Made by a program: the position numbers and the translations under genes | Notes under the pieces: model-generated | Told to the model about the DNA's origin: nothing | The model's database searches: none | The model's input: only the letters and a program-made list of their open reading frames with translations | In this document: positions 4,693-44,622 of the stretch, piece after piece | How positions within the stretch are numbered: position 1 is the stretch's first letter | Layout: the number at the start of each line of letters is the position of its first letter | Source of the DNA: a virus | Taxonomy: Duplodnaviria > Caudoviricetes | Reading direction: 5' to 3' (one strand) | Virus record (IMG/VR): IMGVR_UViG_3300033067_001302 | Coordinates: 18,596 to 82,595 of that record | Length of the DNA stretch: 64,000 nucleotides

Positions 4693-5019
4693 CTATTCGT
4701 CCACTTGTTCGCAAAAAACCAGGGTAACCGAGGACGGCGTGGCCTTCCACTTCCAACGAGCCGTGATCATTCCCTTGATCAAGGTTGCCTTCTTCACCAT
4801 ATCGGCAAAGCTGCTCCCATCCATCAAGTAGAAGCCATTTGTTGTAAGGTCCTTCAGATAGAACCTCTCGGCGTTGTAGCTGAGCACACCCATGCTGGCC
4901 TGAAAGGAATGCTCCGAGAGAGCGTGCTCCCGGACAACCTTCTTCTCAAAGCCCGATGGAATGGAGGCGTAGAAAATGCCGTCGACTGTCTCGAAAATCT
5001 TGCTTGGTTTGCTTGACAT
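4693..5019 (-). CDS. Hypothetical protein
   Basis: 108-aa ORF in the operon direction, SD-like AGGGGA upstream. Confidence 0.6.
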   Translation of the reverse strand: MSSKPSKIFETVDGIFYASIPSGFEKKVVREHALSEHSFQASMGVLSYNAERFYLKDLTTNGFYLMDGSSFADMVKKATLIKGMITARWKWKATPSSVTLVFCEQVDE

Positions 5020-5038
5020 TTCTTTCCCCTAGAATGCC

Positions 5039-5076
5039 AAAAACCCCCACCAGTTTTCACCGATGAGGGTTTTTTT
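5039..5076 (-). terminator. Rho-independent terminator after ssb
   Basis: Minus strand AAAAACCCTCATCGG-TGAAAA-CTGGTGGGGGTTTTT: a G-U-containing stem with a U tail. Confidence 0.75.
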
Positions 5077-5092
5077 CTGCCTTTTTTCTGTA

Positions 5093-5908
5093 TCAGAGGC
5101 CGTTGAACTGATCCTCAACCGACTTCAGGGCTTCATCGTCAGAGCCAACTTCTGCGTCGGCAGTTCCAGCGATGCTTCCTGCATCAATGTCGAGGTACTT
5201 GCGGAGCATCTGAGCAAGCTCGTCGTAGCCCTTGACTTGCTTCTTGAAGATTTCAGCAAAGTTCGGCACGGTGGCAACCAGCTTGTCAATCTCCTCTTGC
5301 GTTGCAGCAAGCTTCGAGGTCTTGCCACCAGGACGAACGTCAACGTCGTTCACAGGGTACGACTTGCCGGTTGTCTCATTCGTAAACGTCTTTCCGCTTG
5401 GGGAAACCGTCAACTTGAAGTCACGACCAACCATTGGGTCGTTGAGCTGCTCCTCAGCGTACTCCTCATCAAGGAAGTTCGCATAGAACTTCTTGCAGAG
5501 ATTGCGGCTCACCTCGTAAACCTGTACACCCTTCTCCTTCTCCTCACGAACGAGGATTGGAGCGTAGAAGCGAGGCTGAGGAAGGAGACCACGGATCGTG
5601 TTCCAGGCGTTCTTGTTTCCGCGATCCTTGTTGAGCTCGACAACAAGCTCTGCAACGGGATCGGGAAGACCGAACTGAGCAGGGGCAACAAGACGGAAAG
5701 GGCTCAACTTCTTGTTGTCGTAGTAGTTCAACTCGAAGAACGGCTGTCCGTCAAAGCTCGTTGGCATGCAACGGATGTTGAAAGTGCGTGCCTTTCCATC
5801 CTCGGTCAAGGTTGGCTTCCAAAACGGAAGCGAGGGACCCGCCTTCTTCTTCTTTTCACCGGAGAGCTCAGCGAACTTTTCTGCGAGTGCCTTGATGTTG
5901 ATTGTCAT
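5093..5908 (-). CDS. Single-stranded DNA-binding protein (T4 gp32-like)
   Basis: FWKP...NIRCMP...PDPV.E.V.EL...PRFYAPILVR, GRDFKLT, acidic C-terminal tail; lies in the replication block. Confidence 0.75.
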   Translation of the reverse strand: MTINIKALAEKFAELSGEKKKKAGPSLPFWKPTLTEDGKARTFNIRCMPTSFDGQPFFELNYYDNKKLSPFRLVAPAQFGLPDPVAELVVELNKDRGNKNAWNTIRGLLPQPRFYAPILVREEKEKGVQVYEVSRNLCKKFYANFLDEEYAEEQLNDPMVGRDFKLTVSPSGKTFTNETTGKSYPVNDVDVRPGGKTSKLAATQEEIDKLVATVPNFAEIFKKQVKGYDELAQMLRKYLDIDAGSIAGTADAEVGSDDEALKSVEDQFNGL

Positions 5909-17900: not shown

Positions 17901-19629
17901 GAGCTGTCTTTGGATTGTCGGTCATGTCCTTGAAGAAGACCTTGAAGGTCTCCGTGATTCTTGAGAACATGGCTCTGAACTTGCGCGGCTCAAAGAGGTC
18001 TCCAATTCCCTTGAAAACATCCTTCACCCCAGGGAACATGTCGACGAAGGCTCTACCAACCTTGATTCCTTCGTAATATGCAGTTCTCAGATCAATCCTG
18101 AGCTCCCGCATAATCTTCCTGAACTCGCTGGAACGCTGGATACCAACCGTGAATCCCTGGATGAACCTATCGAAGAATCCACCCTTACCAAAGGACCCCG
18201 ACTTTACCAACCTCTCGATGGAATCAGCCAAAGCCTTCATTGCCTGCGTCTGAGTCAATTGAGACTTCTTTGCGGCATCGGCTTTCTTGGTGACTTGATC
18301 GTAAGTCATGCCCTGGTTCTTCATGGAGAACACAAGGTCAAGAGCGGAGTCCTCAAGGCCAGTTTGCTGGGCCAGCAAGGTCCTTTCCTGGCGGGTCATT
18401 GTCTCAACCGACCTGCCTGCCTGGAAGAATGCTTTCCTCAACTGCTCGACCCTTTCAGCAGGGTTCTGAGCCTTCATCATCTCAAGGGCGTCAACATTCA
18501 GCCCGAATGCCTGGGAGAGTTGAGCTGCACCCTCTGCGGCATCCGTGAAGTTGTCGTACTTCTCAATGACACCCATGACCTTGGAAACTTCAACGCCCAA
18601 ACGGCGGAAGTAGGTCACAGCTTGACCGATTTCCTTGATGGCAATTCCACCAAAGTGCTTGAAGTCAGCCATCAAAGTTCCCATGTCTCTGGAAATCTCC
18701 TTGGCTGAGCCTGCCGTTCCTCCAAACGCCTTGCTTAGTTGCGTGGAATAGTTGGTGATCTGTCGAAGTTCTTCAGTTACGGCTGTTCCAAGGGCATGAG
18801 ACCGTGTTGCAACCGCCTTTTGAGCCTCATCTGTTAGACCAAGGCCCTTGTAGTAGGCTCCAATGGACTCGGCATTCTGAACGAACTGCTTGGAGAGGTT
18901 GGCAAAGAGCGGCCCAAGGTTATGGGCATACTCCTGAAGGTATTTCAACCTTTCGGCGAGGTTTCCAAAAATCCTCGTGACAGAGAGTCCTGTCTGGGCC
19001 AGTTCCCCCTTCATGTTCTTTGCCATGTCAACAATGGCACGACCGGAGGTCTCCCTGAGAGAGCCAAATTCCTTTCGAATGTCCTCCAAAGCCTGAGCCA
19101 AGGCAGTATCCGCACCACCTGCATCGGCCATGGTGATCAACCCCTTCAACATCTTGAAAGGAATAGACAAGATGGCAATGCCAATTTGCCCAAGGGACTC
19201 AACCAAACCAAGACCTGCACTGGCGGCTGTCTTGAGCATGTTGGAGGAGAACTTCAAGCCCTGGACGAATCCGTCAATCGAGGAGGCTGCTACGGAGAAC
19301 CTCTTCACTTGCTTGGTCAGGGTATCCATCCCCTTACCTGTAGCTTGCTCCTTCTCAAGGGCTTCTTTCAGGGAGGAGTTCACCTTGTCGAACACATCTT
19401 GATTGGTGGAACCGAAGTCCTTCGATTTCTGAGATGCTTCTTCAACAGCCCGAGTTGTGTCTTCGACACTTGAGGCAACATCCTTGAAATTTGCCGACTT
19501 CATTGCTGAAACAAGGTTTTGCGTCAAAGACACTTGGTCTTTGAGGAGCTTGGAGGAGCTCTCCAAGAGCTTGTTCTGCTCAGCAATCAGTTCGTTGAGC
19601 TGAAGTTGAATATCAAGGTTGTTAGCCAT
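14965..19629 (-). CDS. Tape measure protein
   Basis: 1554 aa, Ala/Gly-rich and predominantly helical with central hydrophobic segments; lies upstream of the baseplate genes. Confidence 0.78.
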   Translation of the reverse strand: MANNLDIQLQLNELIAEQNKLLESSSKLLKDQVSLTQNLVSAMKSANFKDVASSVEDTTRAVEEASQKSKDFGSTNQDVFDKVNSSLKEALEKEQATGKGMDTLTKQVKRFSVAASSIDGFVQGLKFSSNMLKTAASAGLGLVESLGQIGIAILSIPFKMLKGLITMADAGGADTALAQALEDIRKEFGSLRETSGRAIVDMAKNMKGELAQTGLSVTRIFGNLAERLKYLQEYAHNLGPLFANLSKQFVQNAESIGAYYKGLGLTDEAQKAVATRSHALGTAVTEELRQITNYSTQLSKAFGGTAGSAKEISRDMGTLMADFKHFGGIAIKEIGQAVTYFRRLGVEVSKVMGVIEKYDNFTDAAEGAAQLSQAFGLNVDALEMMKAQNPAERVEQLRKAFFQAGRSVETMTRQERTLLAQQTGLEDSALDLVFSMKNQGMTYDQVTKKADAAKKSQLTQTQAMKALADSIERLVKSGSFGKGGFFDRFIQGFTVGIQRSSEFRKIMRELRIDLRTAYYEGIKVGRAFVDMFPGVKDVFKGIGDLFEPRKFRAMFSRITETFKVFFKDMTDNPKTALPKLLEHLKDDFFSWFGNNSPNSQRILDGFKKFFVALSNIAGGMLKIAMTTLTKGLREVTDIITGRKGLGGAGGAASGAQSFVAQLLGPIVDAIKEAGPGLWKATKEMFSALWVKVEPWVKENFMKVIGALAAPAFVGMAGRAISTSIAGAFATGLMNWAQSGGISKAFNSVKGMFATQVSAASQAMSKLPIPPAGGAGAGGAAAGVIKGAEQAATAASTSKVNWGAALVKMAAITLFITVGMAGIMYAIFRFAKAMQENRLTTQSIAAAAGAMITTATSMLAIAGAVKLLSAINLNAGMVGKIAIGVAMIGVVGAAMAYATVGLIKLFGNIETSKITKSVLVMGAMGTFFLAASAVVAIAGVVGLAATAGGGVGALVIAAGMATIAASIAVMTVQGMAIMRAIDNFRPGPGFADKAKIFVEVMKGVGQFAANVAQMVSATTPSFIDFIRGTGAAQQKENLKQVENLINALGGQIVRIVDAIRTNVQGLTGSEQQVKSAQIIGDLLSGVSGLANALKPPSEAINEPSFLQGLEGDSVARRISLMTDYVSEVGNKLSQFVRTVVATVTTNLPSGFTEAQAKAAQVIPSILAGVGDMAQALRPSASLLAEMNRGAQFHGVVQHMSAFIRDTMRTITGSDLFVKIGDLLKSVASSVESLNPEQVKALQAIAPAIGPIFTVIGSIGSIIAGLARGQGGGDTGLAARTTPADAGTIFQMTNLVNTFFSRVKDDLPVLVTNMRAAFAGISVKEASSLTRGMQAMQSLFQVVSEIPRFIQSFKGSAGDQGVGQMTTLRDITHTMNLLLLTLTGGEGSKGLISILQTIVPQLKSVGAVIGNPAAFSAKLDSMRAVFNTLSQIPQMIQSLSRVENIATVTSNVANQIERVQFARIATVVTDMVAHVNQLSATIRGIRPIEIEQSLQHLGDSIGLGSQGEYTIQNRNFTVNVNVTIKLDNNGLDALELGMLRRVGPHPTRINHGSLER

Positions 19630-37037: not shown

Positions 37038-37686
37038 CGTACAGTGTATTCGCTTTCAGGGTTGGGTCTACATCAACTCGCCTTGGACCATCTCCAAGGG
37101 CAGGGGCAGGAAGGTCATCTCCAAGACGTTCACGAACATCACGGATATCACCTGTCGGACCGTCGCTGTTCTCTGCAATTCCCCTCTGCTGCTCAAATGG
37201 AGTTGGCGGGGTCGTCTCTTCAACTGGCTTGAAGAACTTCTGAGGGTTGAACTCTCCTGGACGGGCAAGCTTCCCGATAACCTTGTAGGCAACATCGTGC
37301 TCAACCTGCCCAAAGAAGTTGTTCATGTTCAGGTAAGAGACAATCTCGTAAGCGTTATCGCCATAAGTGAAGAAGTCTCCCTCCGAAAGCTCAAGACCCT
37401 TTTGAGCCAAGTCTCTGGCTTGGAGGAACACCTCAAGTGTGTTCTGTTGCTCAGGTCCAAAGGTGGTCATCTTCGTCTCCCACTGGGGCTGTCCAACCAG
37501 GGCATCGACCTTGATTGGGTTTTCGAAGATTTTCTTCACGGCCTCATTGTACACAGGGTGAATCTTCGTCTTCAGGGTCGAGACAGGCCAGTAGATGATG
37601 GCTTGGCCGACAATGTCCTTGATGAACTCCTTGCCGAGGTCATTGAAGTAGTCGATCTCTTTTTGGGTTACGAACAGCCGTGGCAT
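37030..37686 (-). CDS. Head completion / neck protein (gp14-like)
   Basis: IHPVYNEAVKKIF.NPIKV.ALV, LSEGDFFTYGDNAYEI. Confidence 0.65.
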   Translation of the reverse strand: MPRLFVTQKEIDYFNDLGKEFIKDIVGQAIIYWPVSTLKTKIHPVYNEAVKKIFENPIKVDALVGQPQWETKMTTFGPEQQNTLEVFLQARDLAQKGLELSEGDFFTYGDNAYEIVSYLNMNNFFGQVEHDVAYKVIGKLARPGEFNPQKFFKPVEETTPPTPFEQQRGIAENSDGPTGDIRDVRERLGDDLPAPALGDGPRRVDVDPTLKANTLYDE

Positions 37687-38678
37687 CTTATTTCTCCTAT
37701 ATCTCCCCTTCTCTCCTCTTCCTGGTTATCCTCCACTATGAGAAGAGGTTTCAGGAGAACATTTTCCTTAAATAGAATCCACCCCTTGTGGGATTTGATC
37801 TTGCCGGATAGAAGCGAATAGAGGTTCTGCTTTTGCAAACCGTGCGTTTTAGCAAAAGTAGGAATATGGGAAATATTGCGGTAAACAGTTCCGTCTGGTG
37901 CCTGCACTGAACCATACGTTTTTACGGGCTGAGAGCTATTTCTTTTGACAATATTCTCTCGTCCATGAGCCTGCATCTTCGCTTTGAACTCAGGCTCCAA
38001 GGCAAGTCTGCCTCGGTATGTCTCCGCTCTTTTTCTAACTGATTCCTCGGTATTCAAAGACTTGATTGCGGCTTCTTTGACTTCTGGGTCACTCATCCGG
38101 TTCTTCATCCAAAGAGACATGGTTTCTTGGTGCTCGGGATCATTCCAAATGGTTTGAGCACGCTTGGAGGCCGTTGCTTTACCCTCTTCTGTATTCCAGA
38201 ACCTCTTTGCCTTTTCTGCAAGAGTAGACCGATATACCTCATTCTCCCAAACCTTCTTCATCGAATCACTTTTCTTCGCCTTGGTCTCCTCGGGGGTGTT
38301 GGAATAACAGCTACGTTCCAATGCTTCTGTTTTTTCCTTGAAGTTGTAGCAAACACGGGAGCCATCGGGAAGAAGAGCATGGTAAATGCTACCAATGTAC
38401 TCCTCCTCCCTCTTGTTGCGTTCTTCCTTGGTAGATCCTTCCAGCACCTCTAGGACATGAAACTCAAGGAAATCATCATGACCCAACGCTTCCTTGCACT
38501 TGTTGAAGTCGGCTTGGAGAAATTTGTTCTGGTGTTTGCCCTTCAAAAGTGAGGACGCATGGCTGCGCCACCGACTCTTAAACTCTTTGGCTTGACCAAT
38601 GTATTGGCGACCTGTGTGAATATTGAGAATCCTGTAGATTCCTGAAGCTTTCGAGTGCCCACCGTAGATTAATTTCAT
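37668..38678 (-). CDS. GIY-YIG homing endonuclease
   Basis: SGIYRILNIHTGRQYIGQAKEFKSRW; C-terminal module ending HKGW; start re-placed at MKLIYGG (38678). Confidence 0.85.
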   Translation of the reverse strand: MKLIYGGHSKASGIYRILNIHTGRQYIGQAKEFKSRWRSHASSLLKGKHQNKFLQADFNKCKEALGHDDFLEFHVLEVLEGSTKEERNKREEEYIGSIYHALLPDGSRVCYNFKEKTEALERSCYSNTPEETKAKKSDSMKKVWENEVYRSTLAEKAKRFWNTEEGKATASKRAQTIWNDPEHQETMSLWMKNRMSDPEVKEAAIKSLNTEESVRKRAETYRGRLALEPEFKAKMQAHGRENIVKRNSSQPVKTYGSVQAPDGTVYRNISHIPTFAKTHGLQKQNLYSLLSGKIKSHKGWILFKENVLLKPLLIVEDNQEEERRGDIGEIRCHGCS

Positions 38679-38734
38679 AACTACACCATTCCTTTGAGAG
38701 GTAGCATAGTTCAAAGGGGGACGTTTTGCAGCCC

Positions 38735-39994
38735 CTAAAAACACTTTATAGCATGAGTCGGAGGCATGGGGAGGAAGGAAAGTTGCTTCATCAGGTTCTC
38801 GGCCTTCTGAGCTTCCATCTCTTGGAGCTTGTCGTAGGACAGGGACTCAAGCTGACCCTTGAGTTCCTCGATGAGCTTGGTCTGGTCTTCTCTGGCTTCC
38901 TGAACGAGCTCAGAGCCATCCAGTTCGAGGTCAGCATTTGGAATGGGGATACGCTTGACCTTACGACGGACACGACCCATGATCTCCAGAGCAAGAGCAA
39001 AAGTCATTCTAGCAATCCAGTTCTTTGCCCACTGGTTGAGGGTTGCGTAGTTCACAAGACCGAATGGGATGTTGGCAGGATTGGAAGCTCCTGCTGCCAC
39101 TCCAGAGAAACCAGAGGAACCTGCAAGCCCTGCTGTTCCGCTGAGTGAGCTGCTGACACCGAGGTCGATGAAGGCTCCATTCACCTGGGCTTGGAAGCCC
39201 ACTCGAATCCAAACCTTATTGTTCACCCCTGGGATGATGGAGGTTGGAACGGGAAAGAAACGGATATTCCTGCCGGAAATCTTGTAGGTGTAATGGGATC
39301 TTCTCACCTTGCTTGCCAGCTTGAGCTGACCAGCACGAAGAACATCCTCGTAGAGTGGAAGGATGTGGAAACGGGTATCCGTGTTGAAGGCTCCCATTGG
39401 GATACCGACACCTGCTACGTTTCCAAAGTTCGTACCGAATGAGGAGTTGAAGAGATACTGGATTGGAGCGAAGTGGAACACCTCAAAGACACGCATCTTT
39501 CCACCAGAGCCGGAAAGCATGCCGTACAGAGCATTGCCAGCCTCATCCTTCAGGTCAGTGAAAAGGTCGTAATCCTGCTTCCCGGTTACCATGTCAATCG
39601 AACCGGAAAAGGAGTTCTGAGTCGAACCGAAGCCGATGATGTTGGCATAAGGCTCAGCCAACCTATCAAGGAACTCAAGGTTCGGAGCAACGTAGACGTT
39701 CGTGAGATTGATGGTATTCTGGTTGGTCGTGGAATCCCAAGAACCCGTTGGAGTCCCAAGAAGGCTGGCAAGGTTGCTCTTTGTCTGGTATTCGATAACC
39801 CAAGAGTTGAATCTCCAGGTCGCCTCCTCAAAGCAAGACCAAATTTCCTTCTTCGACAACTCAGTCGAAAGCGTGGTCTCCCCAGCCTTGCGCTTGACGT
39901 AAGTCACCATGGAATCAGCATCCCTTTGGAACGCTGGGTCTGAGTCGAATAGCCCAAACGATGTTGGTCGAGGAGTGGTTACGAACGTTGCCAT
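38735..39994 (-). CDS. Neck / head-tail adaptor protein (gp13-like)
   Basis: ELSKKEIWSCFEEA, WIARMTFALALEIMGRVRRK...IPIPNADLELDGSELVQEAREDQTKLIEEL. Confidence 0.7.
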   Translation of the reverse strand: MATFVTTPRPTSFGLFDSDPAFQRDADSMVTYVKRKAGETTLSTELSKKEIWSCFEEATWRFNSWVIEYQTKSNLASLLGTPTGSWDSTTNQNTINLTNVYVAPNLEFLDRLAEPYANIIGFGSTQNSFSGSIDMVTGKQDYDLFTDLKDEAGNALYGMLSGSGGKMRVFEVFHFAPIQYLFNSSFGTNFGNVAGVGIPMGAFNTDTRFHILPLYEDVLRAGQLKLASKVRRSHYTYKISGRNIRFFPVPTSIIPGVNNKVWIRVGFQAQVNGAFIDLGVSSSLSGTAGLAGSSGFSGVAAGASNPANIPFGLVNYATLNQWAKNWIARMTFALALEIMGRVRRKVKRIPIPNADLELDGSELVQEAREDQTKLIEELKGQLESLSYDKLQEMEAQKAENLMKQLSFLPMPPTHAIKCF

Positions 39995-40030: not shown

Positions 40031-40405
40031 TTATTTGATAACGAGGCCCTTCATTCCCTGAATTTGGGTGCTCATCTTGTTCAAGAGGTCGGCCTTCTTC
40101 TTGAAGTTCGTTTCCTTCGCAGCAGCCTGGAGACCTTGGTTGATATTCATGTTGGTTCCCGGAACCATCACGTTGTTTGCCGGGTCGTCGTTCCCAGGTT
40201 TCGTTCCCACTCCCGACTTCGTACCGGTCGTTCCAGTCGTTCCAGAGGTGCCCATGGACGTAGTGGAAGTCCCAGTAGAAAGAGTGCCCTGGGTGACCTC
40301 CGAGAGCTTTGAAAGGTCCTTGAACATCTCCTCTTTCACAGCCTCACGGATGTACTCCATTACCAGCTTCTCGAACGCCTCCATGCTCATGAACTCTTTT
40401 GCCAT
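40031..40405 (-). CDS. Small late protein, Thr/Gly-rich, with leader helix
   Basis: MAKEFMSMEAFEKLVMEYIREAVKEE. Confidence 0.55.
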   Translation of the reverse strand: MAKEFMSMEAFEKLVMEYIREAVKEEMFKDLSKLSEVTQGTLSTGTSTTSMGTSGTTGTTGTKSGVGTKPGNDDPANNVMVPGTNMNINQGLQAAAKETNFKKKADLLNKMSTQIQGMKGLVIK

Positions 40406-40408
40406 GAT

Positions 40409-41017
40409 TCACTTTCCTTTGCGAAGAGCTGCAAGCTCCTCTTTGATCATCTCACGGACCATATCAACGAAGGCTTCCGTGCTCATGAACTTCTTCTTCT
40501 TCTCAGGAGTGCCCTTCTTGGAAGTTGGCTGCTCCTTGTAGTGAGGTTCATCTCCCTTGTTTGCCATGTAGTGCGCCAAGGCATATGGGTTGTCGATCTC
40601 TCCACCCTTACCAGTGTGTCCGTGGGTCTTCATAGCCCTCACAGTGCCGTGCCATCCCTCTGGTGGTGCCTCGGAAAGCATGTCACTCTTGAGCTCCTCA
40701 AAGGCGGCATGGACCACTTCCCAGCTTACCCCGTCAGGTAGGTTGAAGTTCTGCTCCAACTCAGCGGAGACTTGGTTCATGACTTCCTTGTCAATCTTCC
40801 CAGCCTTCTTCAAGAGCTTTTTGGCTGCATCAACCAGAACCCTGGCTTCTGGAGTGTCCTTCATTTCAGGCGGCGATTCATCGGGAGCAAGCAAGGTATC
40901 AAACCAGCTTGGGTCCGTTGCTTGCGATACGCCTTCCCCATATTGGTCGTATCCAGCTTCCTTCATTGTCCTGGTGACGCTCTCCATCACCATCTTCTTC
41001 AGCTCTTTTACCTTCAT
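40409..41017 (-). CDS. Putative head-associated protein with leader helix
   Basis: Start MKVKELKKMVMES (41017), downstream of TAATTA at 41037-41042; DNPYALAHYM motif. Confidence 0.6.
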   Translation of the reverse strand: MKVKELKKMVMESVTRTMKEAGYDQYGEGVSQATDPSWFDTLLAPDESPPEMKDTPEARVLVDAAKKLLKKAGKIDKEVMNQVSAELEQNFNLPDGVSWEVVHAAFEELKSDMLSEAPPEGWHGTVRAMKTHGHTGKGGEIDNPYALAHYMANKGDEPHYKEQPTSKKGTPEKKKKFMSTEAFVDMVREMIKEELAALRKGK

Positions 41018-41075
41018 TTCATACGCCTTTCCGTGGTAATTAGGTTGTACCACGTTAGAAGGCGTTCAGAAGGGT

Positions 41076-41741
41076 TCAGAGGAGGTTCATATCGAGGACC
41101 TTGATGGTGATGCCATCAAGACGAGTGAGGCAAGGAAGAGGCTCCTCAGCGAAGGCCGCGCCGACCTTCCAGTCATCCTCGAAGAGACTTGGGACAACAT
41201 TTCCTTCGACCTTGACCTCAAGCTTTTTCTGGTCTGCAAACTTGGTGCGCGAAACCTTCTTGTCGGTCACGAGTACAAGCTTCGCCACCGATGCAGGAAG
41301 TTCGGAACTTACGTGAACGTAGAACTTCCCATTCAGCACACCAACAAGCTCACCAAAGGCACCCTTCATTGTCTCCTTTGGGCTGTTATTGTTTGCGTAG
41401 TACACAGGACGATACGCAGCAGCGTGCTCAAGGATAGTTGCAAAGTCCGGGGAACACTCCAGAATTTGAGGCATTTGATTCGTACGCTGCCTCACCGTCA
41501 CCGCTGCGTCGTCGATCACATCAACGAGGGTTTCGTACCACGAACGGACGGTCCCAGTAAACATTGGACCCGCACTCGCCACTCCCTTGTTAAGGGCAGA
41601 ATCAGCTCCCGTCAGCTTGTTGACGAACTTGCCCGGGGCTCTGGGCCAGAAGCGCACATTCTTGTCCTCCACAACTGGGGTTGGAGGTGCGATTGGTGCG
41701 GTTGGAACAGTTCTGTATGGATTTGTCAGCTCTTCTGTCAT
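41076..41741 (-). CDS. Truncated major capsid protein paralog B
   Basis: WPRAPGKFVNKLTGA, GPMFTGTVRSWYETL, SPDFATILEH and terminal VLDMNLL align with the capsid protein C-terminal third. Confidence 0.8.
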   Translation of the reverse strand: MTEELTNPYRTVPTAPIAPPTPVVEDKNVRFWPRAPGKFVNKLTGADSALNKGVASAGPMFTGTVRSWYETLVDVIDDAAVTVRQRTNQMPQILECSPDFATILEHAAAYRPVYYANNNSPKETMKGAFGELVGVLNGKFYVHVSSELPASVAKLVLVTDKKVSRTKFADQKKLEVKVEGNVVPSLFEDDWKVGAAFAEEPLPCLTRLDGITIKVLDMNLL

Positions 41742-41770
41742 TGATTCCTCTATTCCAGAGGAATATGGCT

Positions 41771-42565
41771 CTAGAGCACAGGCATGTCCAAAACGATAAT
41801 TTCGTAGTCTGCCAACAAAGCAGGTTGGTCCAAAGCCACGATGTCGAGCTCAGGCACTTCCTTGTGGATGTCCCCAAATTCTGCCTTGAACCTGGAAACC
41901 AACTTCACGTTGATCCTGTTCTCTGGATGCGTGCTGGTGCGCAAGAGAGTGAACCGATCAAACAGGTTGTTCGAAGCAACCCAGCTCGACGGGCTCACCT
42001 GCTCCCAAGCTTTGGCGTATCCCCTGCCGAACAAGTTATTGTCGGTAATGAATGGCGACGTTTCCACGATATTTGCCGTAAAGAGGTTCCTGCGGAACAT
42101 ATCGTTGGAAGCCTGAATAATGAGCTCTTGAAGTGTTCCAAACCAATCCTCCATGGTTCCCGTGAACTCCATGATTGGCTCCATCACCTCTTGTTCTTGA
42201 CGAACAACAACCTCTGTCTTTGGACTCACACCTGGGAGTGGCGTAACAGACAGCTCAGCCATCTTCACGACCTTCTTCAAGGCCACTGCACCCGTGTCCT
42301 TGTTAACGTACCTACCAGGAGCCATGGACCAGTGATACGTTCTCCTGTCGGTAACCACCTTGCGGTGATCTTTCAGATCGGTGAACCCCCCAGCCTTGAA
42401 AGCTGCTTCCAGCTTCGCCACATTCGGGGCCGCTCTCCAGGCAGCAAGGGCTGCTTCAAGTGGTGGAACCACAAATTCCGAACTTGGCTTCTTGGCTGGC
42501 GGTCCTCCGCAACAAGCAGGGGTGCAATACTCTCTTCCGTCTGGTCCGCTAATTCTCTTTTCCAT
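41771..42565 (-). CDS. Truncated major capsid protein paralog A
   Basis: WSMAPGRYVNKDTGA, FTGTMEDWFGTL and terminal VLDMPVL; start at MEKRISG (42565) with GAGG SD. Confidence 0.7.
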   Translation of the reverse strand: MEKRISGPDGREYCTPACCGGPPAKKPSSEFVVPPLEAALAAWRAAPNVAKLEAAFKAGGFTDLKDHRKVVTDRRTYHWSMAPGRYVNKDTGAVALKKVVKMAELSVTPLPGVSPKTEVVVRQEQEVMEPIMEFTGTMEDWFGTLQELIIQASNDMFRRNLFTANIVETSPFITDNNLFGRGYAKAWEQVSPSSWVASNNLFDRFTLLRTSTHPENRINVKLVSRFKAEFGDIHKEVPELDIVALDQPALLADYEIIVLDMPVL

Positions 42566-42608
42566 CTTTTCCTCACGGAAAGGCTGTAAGAGAGAGGCCA
42601 AAATGCAC

Positions 42609-42638
42609 AAAACCCCCGATGCAAAAAGCACCGAGGGT
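42609..42638 (-). terminator. Rho-independent terminator after the major capsid gene
   Basis: Minus strand ACCCTCGGTGC-TTTTT-GCATCGGGGGT-TTT; a GATCC-TTCG-GGATC hairpin lies right at the capsid stop. Confidence 0.75.
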
Positions 42639-42677
42639 CTTGACGCTCCCTCTACCGGGAGCTAAGATCCCGAAGGA

Positions 42678-44591
42678 TCAGATGAGGTTCATATCGAGAA
42701 CCGTAACCGTGGCGTAGAAGTCAGCGCGAACCATCTTCTTGCCGTAGCGTGTCATCACACCCTTGCGAGGAGTGAAGTCTTCCTGTGCGTAGATCACAGG
42801 AGTGAGGATCAAAGGAACGTATGGAGCGTAGATGTAGCCGGACTCCAGGAAGGTGTTACCCTTCAATCCCAAGAGAATCTTGTTTGTTGGGAAGTATGGG
42901 TCCTTGTAGACCACGTACCTGTTGTTCAGCGTACCGATTGCCTCGGCACCGATCGTCATGCTCTCCTTGACTTGGCCGTCCGAGTCAACCTTGTATGCTG
43001 GCTTGTAGGCCACAAGGTGCTCGAAGATGGTTGCCACGTCTGGCGAGGTGATGATGAAGTTTCCGCTTCCACGGAGTGTCTTCCTGTGGATCGTGTTGGC
43101 TGCATCCGTGATGGTCTCCATGAGCGTCTCGTACCACTCACGCACATTTCCGAAGAACTGTGGTCCTGGAGCGAGAACGTTGTTGTGAAGAGCCTCTGCA
43201 CCCGTCTGCTTGTTGACGATACGTCCTGGAGCACGCGACCAGTACAGGTTTGCTGCGCTGGCTTGTGTGAGGAGATCGTTCAAGATTTCACGGTCGATGT
43301 CGAGCGTGATCATTTCGCTGAGGATGTTGGTCAGCTCCACTTCCACGTCGATGGAGTAGAAAGCTGTCAAGTCCTGTGCCATCTCTGGCGACCAACGAGC
43401 GCGGAGCTTACGGGTTGTAGCCGTAACCGACACGCCTTCGATCTTGATGTCAACTTCTGGAATCCTTGGCGAGGAGTCAATTGCGAAGTCCGTTTCGAAC
43501 GATGGAACCGTAAGGGTCGTGCCCTCCGAACCAACCGAAAGTGCGTCGCTGATTGCTGCCGAACCAGAGATGTAAGCCGAAGCTGTACCAGCAGGCTGTG
43601 GAGCCGTTCCTGCGTTGGCGACCTTCAACACAAACATGACGTGGCTTCCGCCAAGTGGGTTTGGTGTGAAGAGACCCGTAGCTGCGTTCCAGTCTCCACG
43701 CTTGTTCAAGGCACGGAGGTTGAGGACGCCAAGACCACCCTGGAAGCTGTCGCCCCAAGCTGTGACCGAGTTGCCGACCGAGCCGAAGCCGGTGATTGCA
43801 ATTTGGTCAAGCGAGTTGAGATCAAGTCCCGAAATCTTGCCTGTAAGCTCGGAGGCCGAGACGAACATGAAGCAGAAATCGAAGCTACCATCGGTGAGAC
43901 CATTCTCAATGTCCGAACGGAAACCAGCGTAGCGGGCGTTGTAGCCTGTCCAGTCAGCCGACGAAGCGACAACTGCCGTGGTTCCTGTGGTCCAGGTCGA
44001 GCCCGAGAGCCAGTAACCAACCGAGTCAGTCGAGCCGGTGATGTTCAAAGCACCCTTGTGAACCTTGGAGAATCCTGTTCCCACGAGGTCGTACTGGCCA
44101 CCAGCAGGAGTTGCACCCGAACGAATCGAGGCTCCAGTTGGAAGGCCGTACACCGAGGTTGCCCTCTTGTAGGTGTCAGCCGTTGCCGAGGTCGAGAGGC
44201 TCAGACCTGCATCACCACCGACGTTCGAGCCGTAGGTGTAATCCAAGTAGAAGAGCAGTCCCGAAGGAAGGCTCATTGGCTGAACCGAAACCACTTCGTT
44301 GGCGACGAGGCCAGCAAAGACCCTACGAACGATAGGGAAGGCAACGTTCGAGAAGCCTGCAATCTGACCCGAGGAAGTCAGAGCAGCGCCACCTGTCGAG
44401 ATGGCGTTGGACTCCTGGATGAGCTGTGCAGTCTGGTTCTCAAGAAGGCGAGAGAGGCTCTCCTTCTGGACGCCGGAAAGACCCTCAAGAAGTCCTGTTG
44501 CAGACCACTTGGACAGGAGCCTTGGAGCGTCGGCTCCAAGCGAACGGCGGTTCACGCCCTCTGCCAATTGCGAAAGTGAGAAAGTTTTCAT
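42678..44591 (-). CDS. Major capsid protein (T4 gp23-like, 637 aa)
   Basis: FPIVRRVF, VSVQPMSLPSGLLFYLD, RKLRARWSPEMAQDL, EITLDIDREIL-like, GYIYAPYVPL, FTPRKGVMTRYG. Confidence 0.95.
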   Translation of the reverse strand: MKTFSLSQLAEGVNRRSLGADAPRLLSKWSATGLLEGLSGVQKESLSRLLENQTAQLIQESNAISTGGAALTSSGQIAGFSNVAFPIVRRVFAGLVANEVVSVQPMSLPSGLLFYLDYTYGSNVGGDAGLSLSTSATADTYKRATSVYGLPTGASIRSGATPAGGQYDLVGTGFSKVHKGALNITGSTDSVGYWLSGSTWTTGTTAVVASSADWTGYNARYAGFRSDIENGLTDGSFDFCFMFVSASELTGKISGLDLNSLDQIAITGFGSVGNSVTAWGDSFQGGLGVLNLRALNKRGDWNAATGLFTPNPLGGSHVMFVLKVANAGTAPQPAGTASAYISGSAAISDALSVGSEGTTLTVPSFETDFAIDSSPRIPEVDIKIEGVSVTATTRKLRARWSPEMAQDLTAFYSIDVEVELTNILSEMITLDIDREILNDLLTQASAANLYWSRAPGRIVNKQTGAEALHNNVLAPGPQFFGNVREWYETLMETITDAANTIHRKTLRGSGNFIITSPDVATIFEHLVAYKPAYKVDSDGQVKESMTIGAEAIGTLNNRYVVYKDPYFPTNKILLGLKGNTFLESGYIYAPYVPLILTPVIYAQEDFTPRKGVMTRYGKKMVRADFYATVTVLDMNLI

Positions 44592-44616: not shown

Positions 44617-44622
44617 TAAGTA
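44617..44622 (-). promoter_or_regulatory. Late-promoter-like TANTTA motif upstream of the major capsid gene (representative of about 20 sites)
   Basis: CTACTTAG 25 nt upstream of the ATG; the same hexamer lies upstream of the sheaths, tube, tape measure, neck and others. Confidence 0.65.

Follow-up and report, generated by a model that had tools for sequence, protein, structure and literature searches.

The window analyzed here is a stretch of 64,000 nucleotides (nt) from a virus of the Caudoviricetes (IMG/VR record IMGVR_UViG_3300033067_001302, positions 18,596 to 82,595), in which the gene of a T4-type major capsid protein (MCP) is followed by two small genes, called here paralog A and paralog B, whose products correspond to part of the C-terminal region of that capsid protein. 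The source record is an 82.6-kb IMG/VR virus record, and its CheckV completeness of 23% indicates an origin from a jumbo phage, which is T4-like and uncultured. The three genes lie in a T4-like head module on the minus strand, where an S77 prohead protease, two small genes and a 712-amino acid (aa) scaffold-like protein precede the MCP, A and B, and where two small head-region genes and then a gp13-like neck gene lie beyond B. The MCP gene (42678-44591, minus strand) encodes 637 aa; the protein is of the T4 gp23 type, contains a large insertion domain and matches Pfam Gp23 with E 1.5e-74 and the T4 gp23 structures, by sequence, with E 1e-26. Among cultured phages, Flavobacterium phage immuto and Microcystis phage Mel-JY01 have the nearest MCPs, with ~41-47% identity.

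Paralog A (41771-42565, minus strand) encodes 264 aa, with an N-terminal extension of ~75 aa followed by the A-domain core, and paralog B (41076-41741, minus strand) encodes 221 aa, with a 25-aa N-terminal tail, the A-domain core and a long beta arm. The start of A was placed at the ATG at 42565, which gives the same length of 264 aa as in the orthologs P0084 and P0085. A longer frame that opens with GTG was rejected, given that it overlaps the hairpin behind the MCP stop and that the 264-aa orthologs favor the ATG. Both genes have strong Shine-Dalgarno sites, with GAGGA located 8 nt upstream of the ATG of A and GAGGA also preceding the ATG of B. The variable N-terminal extension of A contains a C-x3-CC motif (CTPACC; 42506-42523, minus strand; residues 15-20), which had been pointed out in an earlier note on this DNA and which is retained in P0084 and P0085, though not in L015, a relative at the 93% level. 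Inspection of the N-termini of A and B by eye revealed no T4-type cleavable capsid-targeting leader (L/I-x-E).

The earlier note, made from the letters alone, had described A and B as truncated paralogs of the capsid protein, and the comparisons at the sequence level agree with the alignment that it reported. All three open reading frames are present on the minus strand, and BLASTP aligns B with MCP residues 450-568 at 44% identity over 122 aa (E 4e-27), A with MCP residues 450-588 at 27% identity (E 1e-10, with a 27-aa insert), and A with B at E 8e-9. When 31 small proteins of this kind were compared with 17 MCPs using hhalign, a probability of 100 and an E-value of 2.7e-48 were obtained over MCP columns 446-586; judged from this profile-profile comparison, the homology of the small family to the MCP clade is certain. 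The near-identity of the 3' ends of the MCP and B genes was also reproduced (20 of 21 nt), and the remaining DNA of the MCP, A and B has diverged, the best blastn pieces spanning just 25-53 nt. As the same note had stated, neither BLASTP nor the family alignments find in A or B any counterpart to MCP residues 1-445 or to the YAPYVPL...TRYG stretch. Both proteins set in immediately behind the spine helix, retain the elements of the A domain, omit the YAPYVPL...TRYG stretch, which belongs to the P-domain sheet, and terminate in the C-terminal strand (VLDM...) common to the MCP. The idea that they are the two halves of a split gp24 was ruled out, since A and B align to the same segment of the MCP. 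Neither has a Pfam match at E <= 0.1, and neither is assigned to a family by Pfam, PHROGs or NCBIfam.

The predicted structures point in the same direction. The AlphaFold model of B, with a mean predicted local distance difference test (pLDDT) score of 78.6 and a predicted template modeling (pTM) score of 0.71, superposes on T4 gp24 with Z 11.1 (root-mean-square deviation (rmsd) 3.2, 117 aligned) and on residues 315-521 of T4 gp23 with Z 10.8 (rmsd 2.4). The model of A (mean pLDDT 76.6) gives Z 9.6, its best value, with the capsid of phage S6 and Z 9.5 with T4 gp23. The top 50 structural matches, in the searches with A and with B alike, are HK97-fold capsid proteins, encapsulins or the A-domain-only structure 2PK8, and in BFVD and the ESM Atlas the closest models are Gp23 capsid proteins. 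The fold of the A-domain type that had been suggested is thus found in both models, which align with the part of T4 gp23 and gp24 that follows the spine helix. The wording 'A-domain only' fares less well: the core of both models is that of an axial domain, but each is predicted to carry in addition a long two-stranded beta arm at the presumed position of the P-domain sheet, and in A the strands 96-109 and 118-130 form a long hairpin insert. This insert (42176-42280, minus strand; residues ~96-130) is a predicted long beta hairpin that accounts for the 27-aa gap in the BLASTP alignment with the MCP; it is found neither in the MCP nor in B, and it occurs in P0087-P0094. Because of the beta arms and the hairpin insert, 'A-domain only' would be a good first description that is only approximate. 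Neither protein has the complete HK97-type fold, with N-arm, E-loop, spine helix, P domain and A domain, and neither has the near-full-length fold of the gp24 type, given that the P-domain sheet, the E-loop and the N-arm are missing.

The core shared by A and B occurs in stand-alone proteins of 130-260 aa, ~30 clusters of which were returned by database searches. In a maximum-likelihood tree of the shared region, a single branch parts all MCPs from all small proteins, with a value of 94 in the Shimodaira-Hasegawa-like approximate likelihood ratio test (SH-aLRT), and neither A nor B is sister to the MCP of the window: A falls in a diverged subgroup, and B groups with the insert-bearing P0087-P0094. 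The MCP is the source lineage of the small-protein family, which is rare and appears to be old, its split from the capsid proteins predating the diversification of the sampled capsid clade. The capsid paralogy put forward in the earlier note therefore stands as homology to the MCP but not as recent local duplication, given that A and B lie outside the MCP clade and that other members are found far from the capsid gene.

No model in Pfam, PHROG or NCBIfam covers the small family. Within A1, a set of 20 members, Pfam Gp23 (PF07068) matches 3 of the 20 rows, one of them being an MCP fragment itself, and a tblastn search with the minimal member P0075 gave no match in 50,697 phage records. The top match of the A1 profile among PDB sequences is the protease core of calpain-1 (E 0.004; FWS...G...FTGGVTEWYEL), which was judged to be probably a chance resemblance of motifs, and T4 gp24 and gp23 rank below it, at E 0.13-0.35. 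The fusion of P0076 to a J-domain was rejected as a clue to a chaperone, this protein being an MCP fragment on a 1.3-kb contig and probably a chimera or a miscall. Other Gp23-labeled matches of 270-450 aa (P0129, P0034 and others) are shortened calls of full capsid genes and not members of the family. As a separate observation, in P0129 (394 aa, on a 165.7-kb contig), P0034 (316 aa, on a 129.9-kb contig), P0049 and P0114 the capsid gene is called just from the middle of the insertion domain; these could be genes split by an intron or an endonuclease, or start-site miscalls.

In close relatives the order MCP, A, B is retained. A gene for a GIY-YIG homing endonuclease (484-539 aa) lies between the MCP and A in L015-L017 and in L009-L011, and MCP, A and B follow each other without an intervening endonuclease gene in the window, in L019 and in L020. 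The Cys motif of A is replaced in L015-L017, where the homing endonuclease gene lies upstream, and in L015 the insertion replaces the first ~39 codons of A, including this motif. L021, whose MCP is 86% identical to that of the window, carries one small paralog only, which is of another subtype and is followed by a kinase-like gene. Relatives with MCPs of 60-86% identity contain zero, one or two small copies, and the majority of the clade's MCP loci lack a small paralog within 8 kb. Among ~600 MCP-type stretches in IMG/VR, the small copies found numbered no more than a handful, and there are none in the available sequence of the phages immuto and Mel-JY01 or of G002 and G003 (257 and 273 kb; 76-82% complete). 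The A/B family is accessory, rare and dispensable.

Nonetheless, where A and B occur they are functional genes under purifying selection and are not decaying. Intact frames are kept by orthologs of B at 93, 62, 47 and 40% identity and by orthologs of A at 59 and 45%, and the ratio of nonsynonymous to synonymous substitution rates (dN/dS, Nei-Gojobori) is 0.13-0.23 for B and 0.23-0.36 for A. In the comparison with L015, the closest relative, dS and dN of A and B each amount to 5-8 times the values for the MCP and the scaffold, which fits a mosaic, accessory region. These values bear on another explanation of the locus, that A and B are non-functional leftovers of a partial duplication of the 3' end of the capsid gene, for example through recombination driven by homing endonucleases. 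GIY-YIG genes do come and go next to A and B, and the 20 of 21 nt shared by the 3' ends of the MCP and B would be expected from such an event, but the frames stay intact down to ~40% identity with low dN/dS even where dS is saturated. In addition, the single well-supported branch separates the small proteins from the MCPs, members occur in unrelated contexts, A and B have ribosome-binding sites of their own, and the pair is found both where the endonuclease gene occurs and where it is absent. For this reason, a neutral leftover is considered essentially excluded. Silent cassettes for gene conversion of the MCP were rejected as well, given that A and B each possess a start and a ribosome-binding site of their own and that the parts not homologous to the MCP are under selection. 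Moreover, B lacks the P-domain stretch, so that conversion would break the MCP, and other members are far from any MCP gene.

The position of A and B in the head module invites comparison with T4 gp24. Like gp24, they derive from the major capsid gene and are encoded directly downstream of the MCP gene, and gp24 is the best structural match of B. T4 gp24, which forms the pentameric vertices, has a near-full-length HK97 fold (PMC9546572), unlike A and B, which keep only the part after the spine helix and are dispensable across relatives. A fixed capsid part that replaces gp24, whether as vertex, pore plug or decoration, would be in keeping with the gene order (protease, scaffold, MCP, A, B, gp13-like), in which A and B take the position of gene 24, and with the lack of a full-length gp24-like paralog in the 82.6 kb, which represent 23% of the genome. 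However, A and B do not have the N-arm, E-loop, spine helix and P-domain sheet that tie a capsomer to its neighbors, relatives with 60-86% identical MCPs carry anything from no copy to two, and the large and the cultured relatives have none. The vertex or pore-plug role offered in the earlier note is unlikely because these large relatives are without the genes, and a fixed place in the capsid, taken as a whole, is very improbable.

A different kind of role is suggested by the residues that the small proteins share with the capsid proteins. The core of the family consists of YWSRxPGKFVNKLTG, GPxFTGTVREWYETLVETIID, SPDVATILE, GxLxNRFxVY and VLDMNII. In the shared region the consensus of the small family nearly equals that of the MCP clade, and the invariant residues are largely common to both; these include the stretch WSRxPGKFVNKxTG, the start of a helix (FTGTVREWYETL), the SPDVATILE helix and the NRF-VY strand, of which the latter two hold gp24-bypass positions in T4 gp23. 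In T4, the gp24-bypass residues N381, A387 and K420 belong to the A domain and sit where adjacent subunits meet in the core of the capsomer (Fang et al., PMC9546572), and in the alignment of the MCP with T4 gp23 the first two correspond to positions of the SPDVATIFEH helix and K420 to a position of LNNRY. Residues 292-307 of T4 gp23 form the spine helix, and A455 is located in the P-domain sheet (Fang et al., PMC9546572), which is not present in the small proteins. Given that the family keeps the residues of the T4-type interface within the capsomer, binding through A-domain contacts appears the most likely mode of action, and we tentatively infer, with a confidence somewhat short of even, that A and B act via capsomer-type A-domain contacts and modulate or interfere with capsid assembly. 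As partner, the free A domains would have either capsid protein that is unassembled or assembled in part, or further copies of the small protein in a ring-like 'facet', and the outcome would be that capsid assembly is modulated or disturbed, not that a fixed position in the shell is filled. The comparison with the satellite SaPIbov5 is of interest here, given that its Ccm is reportedly a complete capsid-fold protein that redirects assembly. Like Ccm, A and B are extra HK97-derived proteins beside a normal capsid protein, and co-assembly may be the mode of action; unlike Ccm, they are shortened and are encoded by the phage and not by a satellite.

The MCP of the window itself departs from the common motifs. 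At 43206-43304 (residues 430-462, and the region of residues 476-484), the MCPs of the window and of L021 read PGRIVNK and FFGNVRE, and the other sampled MCPs of the clade, together with the small family, read PG(K/R)FVNK and FTGTVRE. The window and L021 both carry small paralogs adjoining the variant MCP, which is at most a weak hint, and the variant counts as a single observation because the two MCPs are sister sequences.

The sequence context gives an indication of how A and B may be expressed. The motif TACTTA is found at 44617-44622 (minus strand), 26 nt upstream of the MCP start, and is a candidate late-promoter element: the window contains 11 copies versus 5.2 expected, most of them 13-40 nt upstream of start codons, and it precedes the MCP, the gp13-like gene and other late-looking genes. 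There is no TACTTA upstream of A or B. Directly behind the MCP stop, a scan for terminator-like structures detected a hairpin with 15 pairs and a T-rich tail (42608-42642, minus strand), which resembles a terminator or attenuator placed before A. Given this hairpin and the lack of TACTTA at A and B, the two proteins would be produced by read-through of the capsid transcript, probably late and at a lower level than the MCP.

Several points weigh against an action through capsomer contacts. B of the window departs from two nearly invariant positions of the family, with the changes S33P and E67S; residue 33 is a Pro in place of the Ser of WSR and residue 67 a Ser in place of the Glu of VREWYE, and the ortholog P0001, 93% identical, has the consensus at these positions. 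A has lost the helix sequence of the SPDVATILE type. The conservation of the shared residues could instead reflect constraints on the folding of the A domain and not a common partner. Any role would be dispensable, given that the family is rare. Finally, in other lineages tens of kb separate the members from the capsid gene, and their surroundings consist of sugar-nucleotide, ThyX and Band_7 genes. In L012 and L108 the small gene adjoins a gene of the UDP-glucose dehydrogenase type in sugar-nucleotide clusters, in L110 it overlaps the thyX start by 4 nt beside a Band_7 gene, and on a single 72.7-kb contig (L125 and L177) it is located ~60 kb from the MCP gene.

These locations bring to mind the Family 4 'A-domain encapsulins' (DUF1884; PF0899/2PK8; Andreas & Giessen 2021, PMC8346489), a class of HK97 proteins limited to the A domain that has already been described, although the earlier note knew of no system with the layout seen here. 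A/B are, like these proteins, essentially the HK97 axial domain alone, with arms and extensions added, and for both self-assembly or partner binding has been proposed. It may accordingly be asked if the free A domain of A and B self-assembles or binds a partner other than the capsid, such as a neighboring enzyme, as a scaffold or stabilizer independent of the virion. The cores of the two models superpose on PF0899/2PK8, with Z 7.7 for B (rmsd 2.6, 84/94 residues) and Z 6.3 for A. A-domain proteins are found in two-gene operons with enzymes, and a stable complex with glyceraldehyde-3-phosphate dehydrogenase (GAPDH) has been reported (PMC8346489). Members of the small family adjoin enzyme genes in L012 and L108 (UDP-glucose dehydrogenase-type), L110 (ThyX), L018 (GNAT-like) and L021 (kinase-like). 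Nonetheless, such adjacency is weak evidence in view of the dense packing of phage genes, the genomes of L012 and L108 are related and not independent, and in the window A and B have as neighbors the capsid gene and small proteins of the head region and no enzymes. No member matches DUF1884, the Pfam model PF08967 giving no match for A, B or the 20 A1 members, and 2PK8 is not among the matches of the A1 profile to PDB sequences at E <= 1; the sequence homology is to Gp23 capsid proteins only. The Family 4 encapsulins are cellular proteins of ~100 aa, encoded behind enzymes in operons of hyperthermophilic archaea and of Rhodothermus and Rubricoccus, with hardly any sequence similarity to capsid proteins, whereas the A/B family is phage-encoded, has 130-264 aa with extra arms and N-terminal extensions, and is clearly homologous to one Gp23 clade (E 2.7e-48). 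Unlike the operons of thermophiles, in which the enzyme precedes the A domain, A and B are in a phage structural module, and the relatives that adjoin enzymes have the small gene upstream. A function of this kind is considered unlikely.

Defense systems that sense capsid proteins exist, such as CapRel and Lit, and A and B might occupy or mislead a host sensor of the newly made A domain of the capsid protein. To our knowledge, there is no precedent for a decoy made of a capsid domain. The genes are accessory, patchy and faster evolving, as may be expected of a decoy, and their variable slot also holds homing endonucleases and kinase-like and GNAT-like genes. In addition, the same genome contains a separate mini-ORF homologous to the Gol region of the capsid protein, kept in a relative, and the Gol region of T4 is what the Lit system senses (PMC3014915). 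However, the expression below the level of the capsid protein deduced above would be unfavorable for a competitive decoy, and the conserved positions are interface or core residues as in the capsid proteins, not obviously the epitope of a sensor. No known anti-defense family was matched, with no match in Pfam and NCBIfam (PADLOC was not searched). We regard such a decoy or shield as rather improbable. An equally modest chance is given to the broader idea that free A-domain modules serve as weapons or shields, capping the capsomers of competing phages or satellites, with the own MCP altered at the shared motif to resist, or soaking up host sensors of coat protein. If true, a phage coat gene that sheds all but its axial domain could also be a route to the cellular A-domain encapsulins.

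HK97-fold capsid proteins are normally viewed as whole building blocks, and in A and B a free-standing axial domain is found beside a full coat gene. The Family 4 encapsulins, the sole free A-domain proteins described, have no traceable sequence link to viruses, and here this link is explicit, which makes A and B a concrete example of how capsid domain-only derivatives originate and persist. For phage annotation they represent a new, unnamed protein family, and in giant T4-like phages they are candidate regulators or disruptors of capsomer formation, or candidates for evasion of capsid-sensing immunity.

The mini-ORF encodes 57 aa and is located outside the window (G000:C1 ~5012-5185, minus strand; L003 1432-1605), between an amidotransferase-like gene and a gene for dihydrofolate reductase (DHFR). 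It is a homolog of MCP residues 86-122 and covers positions 8-45 of the Gp23 profile (IVAIQPMNRPAGLVFYLNY), which correspond to the T4 Gol region. A review describes this region, which binds EF-Tu, as the best conserved in gp23. In the relative G005 (L113 1656-1829) the peptide is retained at this site, although only 49 of the 84 nt are identical.

Freestanding GIY-YIG genes are variably present among near-identical relatives (window 37668-38744, minus strand; L015 5758-7212; L009 3640-5259), and the 358-aa copy of the window (37668-38744) is missing in L016. Between the capsid gene and the gp13-like gene lies a variable slot, in which the 214-aa gene of the window is replaced by a kinase-like gene of 227 aa in L021 (8694-9377) and by a GNAT-like gene of 310 aa in L018 (1443-2375). 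The two genes that follow B in the window (40409-41053 and 40031-40405, minus strand) open with similar amphipathic helices (KELKKMVMES; EAFEKLVMEYIRE), and in the first of them (40409-41053) the amphipathic helix is repeated near the C-terminus (EAFVDMVREMIKEE).

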